A stretch of DNA of 64,000 nucleotides from Candidatus Nanohalarchaeota archaeon. Lineage in GTDB: Archaea; Nanohalarchaeota; Nanosalinia; Nanosalinales; JAFCCC01. Below, piece after piece: positions 2,150 through 44,777 of the stretch (its first letter is position 1; the number at the start of each line of letters is the position of its first letter). The DNA is taken from assembly GCA_017610385.1 (NCBI GenBank), contig JAFCCC010000001.1, positions 32,001 to 96,000 of the forward strand, given 5' to 3'. Both the position numbers and the translations under genes were made by a program. Under the pieces are notes generated by a model, which saw only the letters and a list, made by a program, of their open reading frames with translations, searched no databases and had not been told where the DNA came from.

Positions 2150-3254
2150 AGATAAAAATACAATTGAAAAATTAACGAATCTGGGTAAAAAATTACTTAG
2201 TGAATTAAAACAAAAGGAAAGTCCTTATTTTGATCGGCCAGTTAGGTCTCTTTCTAATGTCATATTTGATGAGAAGGCAGGAACCTTAAAATTAGGAGAT
2301 AGAACATCTAGAAGAACTTTTTTGAATATCGGACACGCACGAACTTTTATGCAATCGGTTATGATTGCGGCAAAATGTAAAGAATTAGTCAAAAATGAAA
2401 GATCTGCATCTATCAGAGAATTATATTATCAATTAAAACATACTATTCCGGGCCTTACTGACAATACTTTGGAAGGACAAGAAGAAAGCAATCCAGTAAT
2501 CGTAGATTTAGAAACTGCATTAGATGCATTAAGAGAATATTTACACTTAACAGCAGATCGAAGTGGTCAATTATTTGGACCATTAACAATAGAAGATCAG
2601 GGAGATAAAATAGATTGTTTGAGGTTAGGAAAATCAGGATTATCTATTCCATCCATTGTTGATGATTATAAATTCTTAGATCATGATGCTGAGTTTATTT
2701 TAGTCGTTGAAACAGGCGCTATGGGAGATAGATTAGTTGAAGAAAAATTTCATATAAAAAACAAAGCTATATTAGTATCAAGCGGGGGTCAGCCTTCTAG
2801 AGGAGTTAGGAGATTAACTCATTTACTGCATCAAAAGTTAGAATTACCAGTATACGTATTTACAGATGGGGATCCGTGGGGATTCTATATATATTCTGTT
2901 CTGAAAACAGGTTCAATGAACTTAGCTTTTGAATCTAAAAGATTAGCGACACCGTCTTCTAAATTCATTGGAATGACCATTGAAGATATTGAAAAATATG
3001 GTTTGAAAAAAGTTACAGAAAAATTAAAGGGCATTCCAGCCAAAAAAGCAGGAGGTCCTACAGAAGATTATAAAAGAGCTATTGAATTGAAAAATTATGC
3101 GTGGTTCAAACACGAACTATGGCAAAAAGAATTAGATAAAATGTTAGCAACGGGTATGAGAATAGAGCAACAGGCTTTGGCATCTAAAAAATTAGAGTTC
3201 GTGTCTGATACGTATCTTCCTGAAAAAATCAAAAATCACGAATTCCTCCCATAA
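2133..3254 (+). CDS. top6A: DNA topoisomerase VI subunit A (Spo11 family)
   Basis: SIRELYY with catalytic Tyr, TOPRIM FTDGDPWG; overlaps top6B. Confidence 0.98.
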   Translation: MPALSEDKNTIEKLTNLGKKLLSELKQKESPYFDRPVRSLSNVIFDEKAGTLKLGDRTSRRTFLNIGHARTFMQSVMIAAKCKELVKNERSASIRELYYQLKHTIPGLTDNTLEGQEESNPVIVDLETALDALREYLHLTADRSGQLFGPLTIEDQGDKIDCLRLGKSGLSIPSIVDDYKFLDHDAEFILVVETGAMGDRLVEEKFHIKNKAILVSSGGQPSRGVRRLTHLLHQKLELPVYVFTDGDPWGFYIYSVLKTGSMNLAFESKRLATPSSKFIGMTIEDIEKYGLKKVTEKLKGIPAKKAGGPTEDYKRAIELKNYAWFKHELWQKELDKMLATGMRIEQQALASKKLEFVSDTYLPEKIKNHEFLP

Positions 3255-3298
3255 GTTGGTTCAGCTTTTTATTTGTTTCCACAGAATACTTTATAGAC

Positions 3299-3372
3299 GG
3301 GACAATAGCTCAGCCTGGGAGAGCGCTCGGCTGAAGACCGAGGTGTCGTGGGTTCAAATCCCACTTGTCCCA
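3299..3372 (+). tRNA. tRNA-Phe(GAA), no intron
   Basis: Acceptor GGGACAA/TTGTCCC, anticodon arm CTCGG-CTGAAGA-CCGAG, T-loop TTCAAAT. Confidence 0.97.
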
Positions 3373-3479
3373 CACATAAATAATATATTACATACTCAAG
3401 TTCTGAATAATATTTGTAGTTAATTAACAAATTGATTTTACTATATATTTTTATATTAGCACACAATAAATGCTTAATT

Positions 3480-4226
3480 ATGCGCGCACTTAAAGGAACC
3501 TTTCATATTTATGGCCGGCAACCAGTAGTAGAAGCATTAAAATCTAATTATCTAGTCGAACAAGTTTGGCTTGCTAAAGACATTCAAGAAAAAATAATCG
3601 ATGAAGTAAGATATCTCGCAGGAAAAAAAGGTGTTCCTATAAAATTTGTAGATAAAAATGAAATTCAAAAAATAAGTGGTGCGGTTGTACATCAAGGAAT
3701 TGCTGCGGTCATGGATCACATTAAAATACAGTCTTTTGATAATCTAGGATCATTTTTAAAAAGGAAAAAAAATCCATTTTTAATAATTTTAGATCAGGTT
3801 CAGGATCCACATAATGTGGGAGCTATTCTAAGGACTGCCGAAAGCTGTGGAGCAGATGGAATTATCATCCCAGAAAAAGGCTCTGCACCATTAAATGATA
3901 CTGTTGCTAAAACAAGTGTTGGTGCGATATTTCATCTGAATATATTTAAAGTAAATAAATTAGAAAAAGTAATTGAATTTTTAAATGATCAACAAATAAA
4001 AACATGTGCACTCATGCCAAATTCTGAAACATCTATGTATAAAATTAATTTAAAATCTGGGGTGGCAATTCTTGTGGGTAGCGAAGGAGCAGGTGTACGT
4101 AAAAACATAAGGAAATTATGCTCAAATAAAATCACAATTCCTCAATTCGGTAAAATTGATTCGTTAAATGCGTCTGTAGCAACCGCAGTTGTTTTGTATG
4201 AAGTAGTACGTCAGAGACATTCTTAA
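3480..4226 (+). CDS. rlmB: TrmH/SpoU-family RNA 2'-O-methyltransferase, RlmB-like (23S Gm2251)
   Basis: IYGRQPVVEAL, HQGIAA, LDQVQDPHNVGAILRTA, GSEGAG, SLNASVA; ATG at 3480 preferred over the ORF-track start at 3432. Confidence 0.85.
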   Translation: MRALKGTFHIYGRQPVVEALKSNYLVEQVWLAKDIQEKIIDEVRYLAGKKGVPIKFVDKNEIQKISGAVVHQGIAAVMDHIKIQSFDNLGSFLKRKKNPFLIILDQVQDPHNVGAILRTAESCGADGIIIPEKGSAPLNDTVAKTSVGAIFHLNIFKVNKLEKVIEFLNDQQIKTCALMPNSETSMYKINLKSGVAILVGSEGAGVRKNIRKLCSNKITIPQFGKIDSLNASVATAVVLYEVVRQRHS

Positions 4227-4371
4227 AACGAGTTAAAACACATTAATTCTTTGATTTGAGATAAAAAGTAATTATGAAAATTCAAACTATTTCGATTTGA
4301 AATAAAAAAGAAAAGAAATTTGGAAGAGTATTTAGCTCTTCACGAATTTAACTTGACTATTCATCCAACAA

Positions 4372-7011
4372 TTAACTTGGATATTCTGCGCTTGTCAAAG
4401 TAATTTCACTTACACCTGTTGCTGCTTTGTCGCTAAATGGTGCTACATCATATGTAGCAACTGCTTTGCTTGCAGATCTGGTATCGTCGGCGCTGTGACC
4501 AGCTACGACTAATGCTACTTTTCCTGAGACAAATGCGTCTTCAACCAAGACAACTTGAGCCATACCATCGTGTGCTCCATCTCTCCAGGTATCTAAATCC
4601 CAGACAGTAGAACCTTCTTGTGCAGATAAATCAGCTACCAAAGTATTGATTGCTGGTCCACCTATCAAGATTAAGTTGTTATCGCTCTTAATTGATGGTG
4701 TTACTTCAGTGTCTAACCATGCAGCGTTAGCTAATAAGTCACCTTGTGTGCTTTCTGTGTAGGTAACATCAGTTGAACCGCCACCAATAGTTATAACTGG
4801 TTCTTCTCCTACTGCAACAGCTGCAATGGATTGCTCATCTGGATAATAGATGGTAATTGTTCCTTGTTCGTATGTGTACTGTTTTACGAAAGCACCATAT
4901 CGATCAACTGTTTTGTAGGTGTATGTGTCACCAATCATATTGTCTTTGTAGTTTGTTGCAGGTGCAGATGCATCTGTATAAACTACAGTTGAACTCCATC
5001 CCATTTTCATAGGCGCTGTTCCAGACGTTCCACCAATTGCAATGATTGCATCTCTTACTTCAGATCCACCACTATTCTTGCCTTTTTCTTCTAATAACAA
5101 GACCATTGGATGTAACAAAGGAAGGACTCCACCGATTGTAGTTATATTGGAGGTAGACATACCATTTGTCAAGGCGTATGTAATTCTTCCTGCACTAACA
5201 GACGTTGTTGCATTGGTAATCCCGACAATAGTTGTTCCTGCACTGCCACCGGGTACTTCATAATACGTTGTAGTGAGATTGCCATTAGCCAATCCTTGTG
5301 TTGAAACGTTGTTTAGGAAAGTTAGAAACTCTCCATTTGCTCCCTTGATTAAGGGGAATAGAGTGGTTATATTTCCTGTACTACCGAAGGTTGCTGTGTC
5401 AGTTGAATCTGCGTTCCAGGTAAATTTAGCTACAGCAGATGTTGCGTTGACAAAGTATGTCAATCCATCAATATATGCGGTTGCATTTGTATATCCTGGT
5501 GCTTCCAGATAGATTGTCGTTTTGTCGCCAGACATCATATCTGTTAACTCAACTTGTGGTGTTCCAGATGAATCTCCTACATCATCAATGTTTGATACTT
5601 GGAAGATGTGTGAGAAGTCTCCTTGAGATAGCAACACATATTCGTATTCAGGTACTGCTTCTCCTTCTATTACATGATACACCCTTGCGCTTGTATCTGT
5701 TAGGGTAGGAGTAACTGTTCCTGTGACTGTGTCGTTATCATAACCAATTGACAAAGTCTTTTCATATCCTCTGTAATCAGTGAACTTTAAGGTTTGTGCG
5801 TTATCCCCAGAGGTAGCTAAGTAGGTTTGTGATCTGCCAGCGTCTTCTAAGTCAGGACTTACACCACCGAAAGCCACTTTGAAAGATCCAAAAACTGGGT
5901 CTACAAATGAATTTCCTTTTGCGATGTAATCTCCGGTTGCGTCTGGTGCTGCAACAGCAACTTCTAATTTAGAGATACCAGAATACTGTGTACCTGTATT
6001 AGTTGTATAAGTTCCATCAACAGAAGTTAAACTTGTTCCGGTTTTTACTTTATTTGCATTGTCTAAGCTAATTTTTTCAGAACCTAAGCTCAACGTTGCG
6101 TAGTTCTGTGTTAGGTCTGTACTACTTGCGTAAAATACGCTTTTAATGTAGATATTTAGACCTTCCAAGGTTGTACTTTCTCCTTGTGCGTAAGTTGAAC
6201 CGTCACTTACTCCATTAACTGTAAATGCAACATTGGAACTCGTGTCTACGACAGCCTTAACTACATAGTCTGTTCCACCAACAGTAACTGTTTGTTCTAC
6301 TCCGTGTGTAAATTGATCAGTTACACCATATCCATAAAGAATTAGTGTATTGTAATCTGATCCACTACCAATAGTGTAATCTTTGTTGAACAAAGTTAAT
6401 GTCTTACCTTGTACTCTGGAATTAGATATATTCAATAATTTATTGAACACAACTCTTGCAGTATATAATGGTGCTGCAACATTAGTTCCACCAGTACCTG
6501 AATCTACATACATTACGGGATCTATACTTTCGCCAGATTTTCCAAACGTAACTGTTCGGCTTCCCATGACCAAGTATTGATCATAGGTGTAATCTACACC
6601 TGAAACACTAAGGGTACCAGATGCAAGAAGATTTGGTAATTCGTTTTTAGTTATTGTCGTTTTCGCGCTGTTTATGGCGTCGCCTAAATATAGTTTTGTA
6701 TTTGCAGTGTCTAAGGATTCACCACCTGTTACTGAAACAGATGCTGAGCCTGTTGCTGCAGTTGCGGTTTTTTCTTCGCTTGTTATAGCCAAGTTACCTA
6801 ATCGCTCTGCGATCTGGATACCACCAACTACGTCGGCAGTCATAGCCCCACTCCCAACTACAATTTGTGATGCAATATTTCCATTGCTCACAAAAGGACT
6901 TGGAAAGTCAGCTAGATCAAATGCGGAAACCATACCTAATGTGGCCCCCATCATTAATGCTCCAGATGCTAGTGCGCCAATCTTTCTGATCGTCGCTTTT
7001 AAATTTTGCAT
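4372..7011 (-). CDS. S-layer protein
   Basis: Signal peptide (IRKIGALASGALMMGATLG), DLADFPSPFV N-terminal and NLILIGGPAIN C-terminal S-layer motifs, Thr/Gly/Ser-rich with many N-x-S/T sequons. Confidence 0.93.
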   Translation of the reverse strand: MQNLKATIRKIGALASGALMMGATLGMVSAFDLADFPSPFVSNGNIASQIVVGSGAMTADVVGGIQIAERLGNLAITSEEKTATAATGSASVSVTGGESLDTANTKLYLGDAINSAKTTITKNELPNLLASGTLSVSGVDYTYDQYLVMGSRTVTFGKSGESIDPVMYVDSGTGGTNVAAPLYTARVVFNKLLNISNSRVQGKTLTLFNKDYTIGSGSDYNTLILYGYGVTDQFTHGVEQTVTVGGTDYVVKAVVDTSSNVAFTVNGVSDGSTYAQGESTTLEGLNIYIKSVFYASSTDLTQNYATLSLGSEKISLDNANKVKTGTSLTSVDGTYTTNTGTQYSGISKLEVAVAAPDATGDYIAKGNSFVDPVFGSFKVAFGGVSPDLEDAGRSQTYLATSGDNAQTLKFTDYRGYEKTLSIGYDNDTVTGTVTPTLTDTSARVYHVIEGEAVPEYEYVLLSQGDFSHIFQVSNIDDVGDSSGTPQVELTDMMSGDKTTIYLEAPGYTNATAYIDGLTYFVNATSAVAKFTWNADSTDTATFGSTGNITTLFPLIKGANGEFLTFLNNVSTQGLANGNLTTTYYEVPGGSAGTTIVGITNATTSVSAGRITYALTNGMSTSNITTIGGVLPLLHPMVLLLEEKGKNSGGSEVRDAIIAIGGTSGTAPMKMGWSSTVVYTDASAPATNYKDNMIGDTYTYKTVDRYGAFVKQYTYEQGTITIYYPDEQSIAAVAVGEEPVITIGGGSTDVTYTESTQGDLLANAAWLDTEVTPSIKSDNNLILIGGPAINTLVADLSAQEGSTVWDLDTWRDGAHDGMAQVVLVEDAFVSGKVALVVAGHSADDTRSASKAVATYDVAPFSDKAATGVSEITLTSAEYPS

Positions 7012-7589
7012 TATTTTTTCACCTTTCTCAAATCAATTTTTGTTTTTCTCATTTTTCTCTGAACTAAGATTATCATCTATAAAACAATAGAGATAATTGT
7101 AAGTATCAAAGATGTTCTAAGAAGTATATTCTATAGATTCACATATATAACTGACTTGAAACCTTTGTGAAACCATTTTTAATCTGAATAAACATGCGCT
7201 TTATATGTTATTCTAGTATCACTTACTCCGTTCAATTGTTCCAATAGGCCCAAAAGACGGTAAAACTTGAAAGTAAGAGTATATAGCAGTTTTCGAATAT
7301 GTGAGTTTATTTTATTAATCTATTCTTTTAAATCCCTTCATATCCCTAAAAAGAAGTTATTATAACTTAAAGAACCTTATCGACAGCTTATCTATAAATA
7401 AGCTATGAGAAATAGTGATTTTTTGCATACAATCTAAAAAGTTATGATATTTTTAATAATTTTTCTTCATATTATTGTCGGTTTTGTTTGTTTTAGAAAT
7501 GTTTTAGAAGTATACTCTTAATAATTTTGTGACAATATATTAAAGTATTAATAACTGTTGAATAAACATATTACAAGTTATTCAAATTT

Positions 7590-41465: not shown

Positions 41466-42158
41466 ATGGTTATGAATGCCATTACACTTCTGAAATTGTT
41501 GGAAGATAAATCAGTTTTCAGAATGGAAGATATACAAAGAATTAAGAAATGTAGCCAAGGGTATGCTTGGCAAGTTCTTGCTAGACTTCGTAAAAAAGGT
41601 ATTATCAAAAAAGTAAGTGAAAATAGTTACACCACAAAAAGCGACATAAACGTAGTAGCCACTAATTTGTTATATCCTTCTTATATCTCATTTTTGTATG
41701 CTTCATATTATTATGGATATACAGAACAAATAGTGAGGATTGTACAACTTGCTACCACTACAAGGAAAAAAGAAATAGACTTTGAAAAATATACAATCAA
41801 ATTTATTCCTATAAAGCATTTTTTTGGCTACAAGAAAATAAGAATATCAGAAGGTGAAATCTTCATAGCAGAAAATGAAAAGTTGTGTATAGATGCCCTA
41901 TTGAGACCAAAAGAGTGTGGAAATTTCAATGAAATCGAAAAAATGTTTGAAAATGCCAAAATTTCAAAAAAGAAGATAATAGAATACTTAAAAAGAACTA
42001 AAATGCAATCATTGATAAAACGAGCAGGTTTTCTTCTAGAAAAACACCAAAACATAGATGTTAGAAGACATTTTGAGCTTGATAAAAATTATACAATCCT
42101 TAATCCCTTTCAAGATAAATGCACAGTGTTAAACAGTAAGTGGCGAGTAAAAACATGA
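41466..42158 (+). CDS. Type IV toxin-antitoxin AbiEi-family antitoxin
   Basis: N-terminal wHTH, PSYISFLYA..YYG.TEQ, FFGY, EKLCIDAL. Confidence 0.85.
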   Translation: MVMNAITLLKLLEDKSVFRMEDIQRIKKCSQGYAWQVLARLRKKGIIKKVSENSYTTKSDINVVATNLLYPSYISFLYASYYYGYTEQIVRIVQLATTTRKKEIDFEKYTIKFIPIKHFFGYKKIRISEGEIFIAENEKLCIDALLRPKECGNFNEIEKMFENAKISKKKIIEYLKRTKMQSLIKRAGFLLEKHQNIDVRRHFELDKNYTILNPFQDKCTVLNSKWRVKT

Positions 42159-42907
42159 TAACAAAAAAAGAGCTAAGGGATTACGCAAAAATAACCGGAC
42201 TTAACTTAGGGGAAGCAGAAAAGGATTACTTTCAGAACATCTTGCTTTTTATTATTTATCAGTTTCATGACGTGGGAATAATTTTCAAGGGAGGTACAGC
42301 ACTAAAAAAGTGTTATGGTCTTAATAGATTCTCAGAAGATTTGGATTTTACATGTATTAAAAAATTCAATATTCAGTCACTCAAAAAGGGTATGAACAGA
42401 TTTAGAATAGACTTTGAAATAAAAATGAAAAGTTATGAGAGAAGTCAAAAAATAATGCTAAAAATTAAAGGTCCGTTATACATGGGAAATCCTCAAAGCG
42501 TTTGTGGCATTGCCCTTGATTTGAGCTTCAGGGAAAAGATTATTCTTCCTCCAAAGCTAAAAACTATTGGAAGGTTCTTAGAAGAATTGCCTGCCTTTGA
42601 TGTTATTGTAATGCAGGAAAAAGAAATATTGGCAGAAAAGATAAGAGCTATGCTCTCGAGAAATGCTGCAAGGGACTTATATGATATTTGGTTTCTTCTT
42701 AATAAGGATGTAGAACTTGAACCGAAACTACTCAATGAAAAATTTAAATATTACAATCGGGTCTGGAACCTGAAGGATTTTGAATCACAAATAAATAATT
42801 TAAAACATATTTGGAAGTCAGAATTATCTCTTCTGATAAAAAACGTTCCAGATTTTAACGTAGTAAAGAATTTGGTTATGTGTCATGCTCAAAAGTGGAA
42901 AAGGTAA
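42155..42907 (+). CDS. Type IV toxin-antitoxin AbiEii-family nucleotidyltransferase toxin
   Basis: EKDY, FKGGTALKK.YGLNRFSEDLDF, EILAEKIRA, RDLYD. Confidence 0.92.
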   Translation: MITKKELRDYAKITGLNLGEAEKDYFQNILLFIIYQFHDVGIIFKGGTALKKCYGLNRFSEDLDFTCIKKFNIQSLKKGMNRFRIDFEIKMKSYERSQKIMLKIKGPLYMGNPQSVCGIALDLSFREKIILPPKLKTIGRFLEELPAFDVIVMQEKEILAEKIRAMLSRNAARDLYDIWFLLNKDVELEPKLLNEKFKYYNRVWNLKDFESQINNLKHIWKSELSLLIKNVPDFNVVKNLVMCHAQKWKR

Positions 42908-43001: not shown

Positions 43002-43865
43002 TCATAAATCAAATTCTGGTGCCTCGCTCCGCTCAGCAACTCTACTGGCAGGGAAAGAACCGAAATAAGGGCTCCTGTAACTCGGCTCAAAGTAGAGGTC
43101 TATACACAAAGGACCGTCGTCCCCGAAAGACCAGGAAAAGATGGCTCTTGTTCCTGAATCTACTCTGTAATTTCGAGATAATTCATATTTTGCCTGTTCT
43201 TCACTTATTCCTAAGCCCTCTGCGATTAGTTTTCTTGCAGTTTCAGAATCTTCCTCTGATTTTAAAAGTGTTCCTGTAACAGAGTGGAACATTCTTCCAT
43301 TTAGAGGAACAATAACGCTTCCATTTCCTCTTGGCAATGGAACTAAAACGCCTCTTGAATGTTCTTCTTCAATAGATGGCTTTACTTTCCAATCTCCTTC
43401 GGTTTGCTCAAATCCTTGAATGTATTGGAAATATCTTGCTAAAACATAATCTTGTTCTAAAAGTGGCTGGAATCTTTTGAAAATTTGTGGGTGTCTTTTC
43501 GTAAGTTCTTCTGTATCAAAAATAACTGCTCCGTCTCTGTGCCATGTTCCTTGGTATGATTGCCAGGGTTTGTACTATTCATTTCTTCTTGCTCTGCTCT
43601 GGCAGTCTGCATAAACTAACTTCATGGCTTCTTGAACTTCTTCTGGAAGTTTTCCTGCATTTCCTACTCCGTATGCTAAATCAAAACCGCCTCTATAAAG
43701 AACTTCTTTAAATAATAGAATATCTGATCTTGGTGCTAAAACTTGTGCTTGTTCTCCTGAACCAATATCTGCATACAAACCTCTGCCTAATTCTCTTGCT
43801 TCTATTTGAGAACCCAAATATTCAAAATCTGGTGCTTTTATGGTTTCGGTTGTCATTTTTATCAT
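43002..43865 (-). pseudogene. DGR target-like gene B, one reading frame interrupted by an in-frame TAG at 43575-43577
   Basis: ORF 43575-43865 continues in frame past TAG (YKPWQSYQGTWHRDG...LARYFQYIQGFEQ...) into ORF 43002-43337; paralogous to 43872-44777. Confidence 0.75.
43017..43145 (-). repeat. Putative DGR variable region, copy B
   Basis: 129-nt ungapped match to 43980-44108, 27 mismatches by hand alignment. Confidence 0.75.
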
Positions 43866-43871
43866 AAACCT

Positions 43872-44777
43872 CTATTTTGCTCTACGCTCAAGGAACTCTT
43901 GAAATCTGTCCAACATCTCGCGATCTGCTTCCAGAGCTTCCAGTTCTTCTCTTCTTCTTAAAACGTAGTCTGGATTTGCTGGTGCCTCACTCCGATCAGC
44001 AACTCTACTAGCAGGGAAAGAACCGATATCGAAGTTCCTGTCCCTAGGCTCATTGCTGAGGCTTATACTCAAAGGGCCGTCGTGCACATAAGACCAGGAA
44101 CCGACGGCTTTAACTCTTTCTGTTCCTCTGAAAAATTTTGAAAGTTCTTTTTCTGCTTCTTCATCTGTTAAATTTCCGGCTTGTTTCCATATTCCAATTG
44201 CATTGTCTTTATCTGTTGTATATGTTGGCGTTCCAAATCTTGGGTCAAAAACAAATCCGTTTTGAGGGTTTGGCGCAATAAATTTGCCTCCTCCTTGTGG
44301 AAGCAAAACTAAACCTGTAACAGTATTCTCATCTGTCGTTGGTCTCCATACACCCTCCTTTACTTCTTCAAAACCTAAAATGTCTTGGTAATATCTTGCC
44401 CACTGGTAGGTTTCTGGAGCAGGCATAACGCCCAAAGGCAGTTGGTCATTTGGCAAAAATTCGACAGCATCTTTATGCCACCCTCCTCGTACTTTTCTCT
44501 CTTGAGCATCATTGTAAACTAAAAGACCTAATTCTTTTACCTCTGTTGGAAGTACTTTTAATTCAAAAGAAGGTTCTCTTTCTCTTGTTTGATATAATGT
44601 TAAATCTCTTCCGATTTGATATAAACAAACTCTCCAAGATAGAGGACTTGACAAAGGAGTTAATTCATACACGGATTTGCTTGTTCCTAAATTTTCAATT
44701 AATTTCGTTGGGGTTTCAATTGCTGGAACATGAATTCCACGGTAAATAAATCCTGGAGTTTGAATGGTGTTGGGCAT
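43872..44777 (-). CDS. Putative DGR target protein A
   Basis: C-terminal SWS..DGPL.I.L.NEP.DRN.DIGSFPASR block shared with the paralog; resembles CLec-type DGR variable-region termini. Confidence 0.75.
   Translation of the reverse strand: MPNTIQTPGFIYRGIHVPAIETPTKLIENLGTSKSVYELTPLSSPLSWRVCLYQIGRDLTLYQTREREPSFELKVLPTEVKELGLLVYNDAQERKVRGGWHKDAVEFLPNDQLPLGVMPAPETYQWARYYQDILGFEEVKEGVWRPTTDENTVTGLVLLPQGGGKFIAPNPQNGFVFDPRFGTPTYTTDKDNAIGIWKQAGNLTDEEAEKELSKFFRGTERVKAVGSWSYVHDGPLSISLSNEPRDRNFDIGSFPASRVADRSEAPANPDYVLRRREELEALEADREMLDRFQEFLERRAK
43980..44108 (-). repeat. Putative DGR variable region, copy A
   Basis: Matches copy B; differences concentrated at codon positions 1-2 of NNC/NNT codons. Confidence 0.75.

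Follow-up and report, generated by a model that had tools for sequence, protein, structure and literature searches.

Tandem variable-protein genes of a Nanohalarchaeota archaeon, probably orphaned targets of a diversity-generating retroelement, and split templates in the cassettes of their relatives

Two tandem paralogous genes, A and B, lie on the minus strand of the window, the 64,000-nt stretch of DNA from a Candidatus Nanohalarchaeota archaeon that was analysed as a whole (Table 1). Their designation as target genes of a diversity-generating retroelement (DGR) is well supported, since each carries a 3′ variable repeat (VR) and the differences between the two repeats are adenine-linked as judged via the template repeats (TRs) of relatives. 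We suggest that A and B are probably horizontally acquired DGR targets of an Aenigmatarchaeota-type lineage, orphaned by loss of the cassette that once served them.

Table 1. Features of the two-gene locus, in window positions
Feature	Position	Strand	Description and basis
Gene A	44777-43872	minus	Intact gene for a 301-aa DGR-family variable protein; ORF listing, predicted structure
VR of gene A	44005..44108	minus	Ends in IMH-type AGTAG; colinear with the templates of relatives in their predicted spliced form
GC-rich cis element of gene A	43980..44004	minus	12-nt core at 43997-43986, with 2 substitutions
Gene B	43865-43002	minus	Paralogous variable-protein gene of 287 codons, broken by an in-frame TAG
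In-frame TAG, gene B codon 97	43577-43575	minus	ORF listing; truncated product on record
VR of gene B	43042..43145	minus	Ends in AGTAG; colinear with the templates of relatives
GC-rich cis element of gene B	43017..43041	minus	Core intact

The proteins of A and B are only 35% identical over 290 columns, and about 35% also upstream of an ungapped 3′ block (44108-43980 and 43145-43017, minus strand) in which 102 of 129 nucleotides are identical (blastn of the block against the 788-kb genome, E 5e-27). The 27 differences are distributed 11/8/8 over codon positions 1/2/3, and the hand counts of the first-pass annotation, 102/129 identical positions and 19/27 differences at codon positions 1-2, were reproduced exactly. 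Third-position identity between the genes is 0.48 upstream and 0.82 inside the VR, indicating that the 3′ ends became alike long after the genes had diverged. A profile of the relatives' TRs matched the VRs of gene A (E 7.7e-16) and gene B (E 2e-9), and the AAY-rich template that had been back-inferred from the window letters agreed nearly codon for codon with the real templates of relatives. When a template-adenine site was defined as A in at least half of eight colinear templates of relatives (14 were tried, of which 6 fell below the colinearity cut-off), the VRs differed at 15/27 such sites and at 10/77 other sites (Fisher p = 3e-5, the "non-A" sites being defined from relatives' templates and not from the cognate one), so that the bias is adenine-linked. 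Six differences between the VRs are at third positions, where the eight colinear templates carry 0-2 adenines each; as far as these sequences can tell, a single template like those of the relatives cannot have given rise to the VRs of A and B by recent copying in both cases.

The AlphaFold2 model of gene A, built on 55 homologue sequences (mean pLDDT 94.5), comprises a CLec-fold domain (residues 1-262), a flexible linker and a C-terminal helix (residues 276-300). In a comparison with 48,161 chains, its best structural match was the DGR variable protein TaqVP (5vf4; Z 9.1, rmsd 3.6 over 187 residues), followed by the DGR protein AvpA (5ioo; Z 6.2, rmsd 4.2 over 148 residues) and then by C-type lectin domains, and the structure prediction that had been proposed as a check thus yields a gene A protein of modelled CLec fold. 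Foldseek with the same model returned a best E of 0.17 and nothing at E ≤ 0.001, Pfam held no family matching gene A, and relatives in the Atlas occurred only in unnamed archaeal clusters; the 90% collection contained four further homologues and the 50% collection 63. Hydropathy averaged over 19 residues peaks at 0.62 in A and 0.87 in B, showing that neither protein has a hydrophobic leader or a membrane segment, which agrees with the earlier remark that signal peptides are missing. The product of gene A is recorded on three contigs, possibly from non-independent assemblies. A 99%-identical variant differs only by T40A and S257I, with no change at the internal variable codons; S257I is at a template adenine, though this is the fixed IMH/IMH* position. 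The protein is most likely still made, as a putative soluble ligand-binding protein of fixed specificity in which the C-terminal helix could be an oligomerisation element.

The first-pass annotation had treated both genes as whole, but gene B is interrupted by the TAG, which divides it into listed ORFs of 96 and 111 aa and lies inside its match to the family profile (E 3e-69, 1 TAG). A truncated 93-aa product of gene B is recorded on as many contigs as the gene A product, three, again possibly from non-independent assemblies, and no full-length version without the TAG was found in the records searched. Read-through was considered and rejected because TAG is a normal stop in this genome, ending 74/451 long ORFs, and also terminates gene A. 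A Pfam match of the front part of gene B to MCH (E 0.03) was dismissed as chance.

Members of the family were found in 47/371 genomes of the phylum to which an Aenigmatarchaeota genome belongs; in the window's own phylum, 0/69 further genomes had one. Twenty homologous loci were scanned, 19 from these 47 genomes plus L003. In 14 of them a TR lies 417-713 nt downstream, its mismatches to the VR almost only at template A, and in most of the 14 the Avd and RT genes come next; six loci have no local TR, and for one of these the TR is on an overlapping contig. These A-specific TR/VR pairs, with Avd and RT beside them, indicate that the family consists of genuine DGR targets, in cassettes arranged as target-TR-Avd-RT. 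Among the homologue-bearing genomes, counted whatever their completeness, an RT match is absent in 26/47 and present in 21; the RT-less ones include a single 742-kb contig (G340) whose family copy carries a stop.

The arrangement is not always compact. In G383 (L045, L141 and L142, on contigs C4, C3 and C1), one intron-less mid-contig TR matches its cis VR and two VRs elsewhere; 14/16 and 13/15 mismatches of the VRs on other contigs are at A, and each pair among the three VRs under this one TR shows only 2 non-A sites and 1 third-position difference. On this sequence evidence, non-adjacent targets do occur in the family. Another genome (G355) has two cassettes. Candidate remote target/TR pairs in G286 and G282 were rejected, because both targets are at contig ends and the two G286 contigs overlap; we read them as cis cassettes cut by assembly.

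Several relatives showed further peculiarities. At L003:7169-9764 there is a decaying cassette, in which the RT has a stop and a deletion, Avd is partial and TR and VR have 9 non-A mismatches, and which is likely to be an intermediate on the way to an orphan. In G286, the related VR pair L139/L140 (contigs C4 and C30) shows 5 third-position differences, with one member beside an RT fragment, and resembles the window pair. Avd and RT share a single open frame at L043:3809-5254 and L045:4051-5475, a possible Avd-RT fusion. The contig with the decaying cassette also holds, at 2607-7118, a 1503-aa ORF that is isoleucyl-tRNA synthetase-like and has, by eye, a large intein-like insertion. A metagenome pattern scan, from which records very close to the source genome may be omitted, gave one match (L006), to a 1.5-kb contig that encodes a distant homologue and whose ORFs include no RT.

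In the relatives, TR homology ends at AGTA in the VR versus AATA in the TR in 13/18 family cassettes, and the GC-rich tail lies beyond this point; both window VRs likewise terminate in AGTAG, a putative IMH by sequence. The tail had been proposed to be IMH-like, which does not hold, as the TR homology of the relatives stops before it, and the tail appears to be a separate downstream element rather than the IMH itself. Of the 18 family cis cassettes, 13 contain its 12-nt core without change, one contains it with 2 changes and 4 lack it; the core is translated in two different frames, which implies that it is conserved as DNA. Hairpins downstream of VRs A and B were no better than in shuffled sequences (z -0.74 and 0.37); a hairpin or cruciform downstream of the IMH is present in only 34% of DGRs (PMC5758913).

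The source assembly (G000) measures 788 kb in 18 contigs and is 93.5% complete. Neither RVT_1 (PF00078) nor the RT and Avd proteins of relatives used as queries (tblastn, phmmer) found a match in it. Blastn and an adenine-wildcard scan of the assembly detected no TR and only the two VRs, which were also the only matches of an nhmmer profile of the relatives' TRs; in a split-tolerant TR scan the top score outside the VRs was 17, compared with 28-83 for true pairs. The first-pass remark that no RT or template lies nearby can accordingly be extended from the locus to the whole assembly, and the non-coding copy of the block beside RT/Avd that a whole-genome blastn had been expected to reveal is not in the source assembly. 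Within the window's own phylum, RT matches occur in 7/70 genomes, all from another family; their identity to the query does not exceed 44%, and in the two of these genomes with a detectable TR/VR pair the 112-nt template is uninterrupted and of a different class.

The GC content of genes A (0.40) and B (0.39) stands out against that of their neighbours, an AbiEi/AbiEii pair (0.31) on one side and, on the other, a gene that we take to be leuS (0.32). From this contrast, the absence of the family from 69 same-phylum genomes and its presence in another phylum, we infer that A and B were acquired horizontally. The AbiEi/AbiEii genes (41466-42907) are a type IV toxin-antitoxin pair and converge on gene B, only 94 nt separating gene B from the next, convergent gene; together with A and B they could constitute a small island of acquired genes next to leuS. 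At several contig ends of the genome (C3, C6, C9, C11, C12 and C13), a repeat family of about 60-200 nt common to many contigs was observed, which probably causes assembly breaks.

These observations could be combined in the following history. A and B would have been received by horizontal transfer from a cassette with the order target-TR-Avd-RT. Their 3′ ends would have become alike through a common or closely related template and through copying of the block of VR and tail from one gene to the other, and mutagenic retrohoming would then have rewritten the AAY codons lining the binding site. After loss of the TR, Avd and RT, the two variants would have frozen and drifted, and gene B would have gained its nonsense mutation. 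The loss is supported by the six third-position differences between the VRs, compared with one per pair under a single TR in G383, by the TAG in gene B, the decayed core downstream of gene A and the 99% variant without internal VR change, and by the frequency of orphans among homologue-bearing genomes. The first-pass annotation had proposed that a DGR elsewhere diversifies, or once diversified, the genes in trans: adenine-linked VRs and membership in a true target family favour the past tense of this claim, and the missing TR, RT and Avd, the broken gene B and the drift of the VRs disfavour the present one. Diversification of A and B in trans at present is less likely than orphaning. Nevertheless, some observations count against orphaning: the assembly lacks part of the genome and consists of 18 contigs, and repeats often fail to assemble; gene A has no break, neither VR has lost its IMH-type end, and the core downstream of gene B is exact; and two different templates could account for the non-A differences, a situation for which the two cassettes of G355 offer a parallel.

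A TR-Avd-RT set in an unassembled part of the chromosome might thus still rewrite gene A, and perhaps gene B, in trans. About 6.5% of marker genes are missing, the G383 TR serves VRs on other contigs, and in the archaeon GW2011_AR20 three targets are separated from the RT by 114-554 kb (PMC5758913 supplement); the retained IMH-type ends and the integrity of gene A would also fit. We nevertheless regard such continuing service as unlikely, because TR, RT and Avd are all without trace in the assembly, the VRs of A and B have drifted at non-A and third positions, gene B has a nonsense codon and the core downstream of gene A two substitutions, the 99% variant lacks internal VR variation, and the RT matches of the phylum are confined to another family. 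Intermittent service by a DGR that comes and goes with a virus or mobile element outside the assembly is conceivable, given that archaeal viruses bear DGRs (PMC4372165) and that A and B look foreign and adjoin the AbiEi/AbiEii pair. It is very improbable, however, as the viral contigs yielded 0 VR/TR pattern matches and 0 relatives of the family, every cassette seen is on a contig of a cellular genome, and the drift speaks against recent rewriting. The locus might finally owe nothing to a DGR, a single gene conversion having homogenised the 3′ ends before positive selection acted on surface residues. The identity of A and B does extend 25 nt beyond the end of the relatives' template (23/25 identical), which makes it likely that DNA was to some extent copied from one gene to the other, but the differences sit on the adenine sites of real templates, the homologues are DGR targets and the fold is that of DGR variable proteins; the template alignment appears already to have largely refuted this explanation, to which we give the least credence of all.

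If orphaning is accepted as the preferred reading, the nature of the lost template can be approached through the intact cassettes of relatives. To the 14 TR/VR pairs found earlier and the G286 pair were added pairs from further RT loci, of which 40 were taken among the 95 RT matches listed; five had no TR/VR pair and four were dropped (one VR-VR pair, two unrelated duplications and one opposite-strand pair), leaving 31 and giving 46 pairs in all, from loci that are related and not independent. In 38/46 pairs the template is interrupted by inserts of 15-69 nt (76 in total) that are precisely absent from the VR, with one insert in 12 templates, two in 14, three in 12 and none in 8. The split-template loci are L039, L040, L041, L043, L044, L046-L048, L052, L056-L058, L098-L107, L110-L112, L115-L119, L121, L123, L124, L126-L128, L130 and L133. 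Of the 76 inserts, 60 have a length divisible by 3, even though the TR is regarded as non-coding. One locus (L130, G095:C46) combines a distant RT (44% to the query) and another VR class with three inserts of 60, 36 and 69 nt, which suggests that inserts of this kind arose in two or more lineages or have spread widely.

All 76 inserts can be drawn as a bulge-helix-bulge intron, and the predicted product matches the VR register in 76/76. The central 4-bp helix at the junction is perfect in 57/76 and has one mismatch in 19/76, with 36 different helix pairs. When insert interiors were shuffled 2000 times with the same best-junction choice, a perfect central helix was found in a mean of 9 and a maximum of 18 inserts, and the joint bulge-helix-bulge criterion in a mean of 6.3 and a maximum of 16, compared with 72 of the real inserts. 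With a 3-nt bulge the inner helix is at least 3 bp in 62/76 inserts, whereas bulges of 0-2 or 4-7 nt give this in 0-7/76. The exon-side helix of the full canonical motif reaches only 0-2 bp in 73/76 inserts (bulges disallowed), and the motif is thus relaxed. The archaeal splicing endonuclease cuts after the second bulge base, and its gene is present in 5/5 cassette genomes tested and in the source genome. The match to the VR register and the shape of the inserts suggest that the tRNA endonuclease splices the template RNA ahead of reverse transcription, and the templates of intact relatives are, on sequence grounds, very probably spliced. The insert junctions have microhomology of 2-3 nt, and the polymerase may instead jump there; a jump of the RT across the hairpin base is less likely than splicing, since the resulting deletion would be 4 nt longer or 7 nt shorter than the one seen. 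The VR codon CTC opposite the 3′ bulge AT/C in L041 and L044 was set aside as non-discriminating, AAC-to-CTC being recurrent in these VRs.

In the target family of A and B, 14/18 cassettes have 1-3 introns (one further unsplit template was also seen), and in 12 of these 14 an intron occupies the position that corresponds to CAGG-AAC and CAGG-AGC of the window VRs. The nearest cassette-borne relatives by path have one intron (L056) and two (L039), in a quick tree in which the placement of A and B is unresolved. No split template is present within the window; the VRs there suit the spliced register and equally an intron-less template, and it is from the relatives that we infer the link to introns. 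On this comparison the lost template of A and B is likely to have carried bulge-helix-bulge introns, and it is somewhat less firmly expected both to have had them and to have had them removed by the host tRNA-splicing endonuclease and ligase. In that event the window VRs would have been copied from a split template after removal of its introns, and splicing would give the host a gate on hypermutation. Spliced templates would constitute a new substrate class for the tRNA-splicing endonuclease and a retroelement dependent on host RNA splicing. An engineered-intron test of retrohoming has reportedly been done in Bordetella phage, of which they would be the natural counterpart. Split templates would also cause standard TR/VR searches to miss or truncate elements, and the statement that a genome has no template needs a gap-tolerant search, such as the one used here.

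Partial DGRs in DPANN archaea have already been described, and the same choice between fossil and remote target was posed for them (PMC4372165). The partial DGRs of DUSEL4 Nanoarchaeota described by Paul et al. 2015 (PMC4372165) are like A and B in having a target, a VR and cis elements and no RT gene, in a G versus A difference between IMH and IMH* that resembles AGTA/AATA, and in a coding sequence that runs on beyond the VR. They differ in protein family and IMH sequence and in the full cassettes elsewhere in the same genome, none of which was found in the source genome of A and B; the latter are also without a detected short-loop hairpin after the VR. Targets far from the RT, including some in a DPANN genome, were documented by Wu et al. 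2018 (PMC5758913), but those rest on a TR in the same genome, and A and B have none. At the protein level, gene A is like TaqVP and AvpA (PMC5006420) in its CLec fold, its VR near the C-terminus and the helical extension that follows, although sequence identity is only 5-6% and the last strand reads GSFP in the window proteins versus RFxGV in AvpA (PMC5006420); AvpA-like proteins without a DGR have also been reported in the same paper.

For the templates, length differences between TR and VR were noted in 25/372 DGRs and attributed to slippage at AAC (Wu et al. 2018, PMC5758913). The known archaeal bulge-helix-bulge substrates given in PMC7714728 are tRNA, rRNA and two mRNAs (cbf5 mRNA and the HVO_1309 5′ UTR). 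The inserts of the relatives resemble these introns in the 4-bp central helix and the 3-nt bulges, and are unlike them in that the host RNA is a retroelement template and the exon-side helix has 0-2 bp in 73/76. No paper joining a DGR with bulge-helix-bulge was found in the literature covered, which was without the main DPANN/CPR survey (Paul et al. 2017, Nat Microbiol 2:17045). Beside these systems, the locus adds a CLec-fold target family outside Pfam and suggests that such target genes cross phyla and outlive their machinery. An orphaned pair of DGR targets would be ordinary for DPANN archaea, and it is the spliced templates, in the relatives, that would be the novel element.
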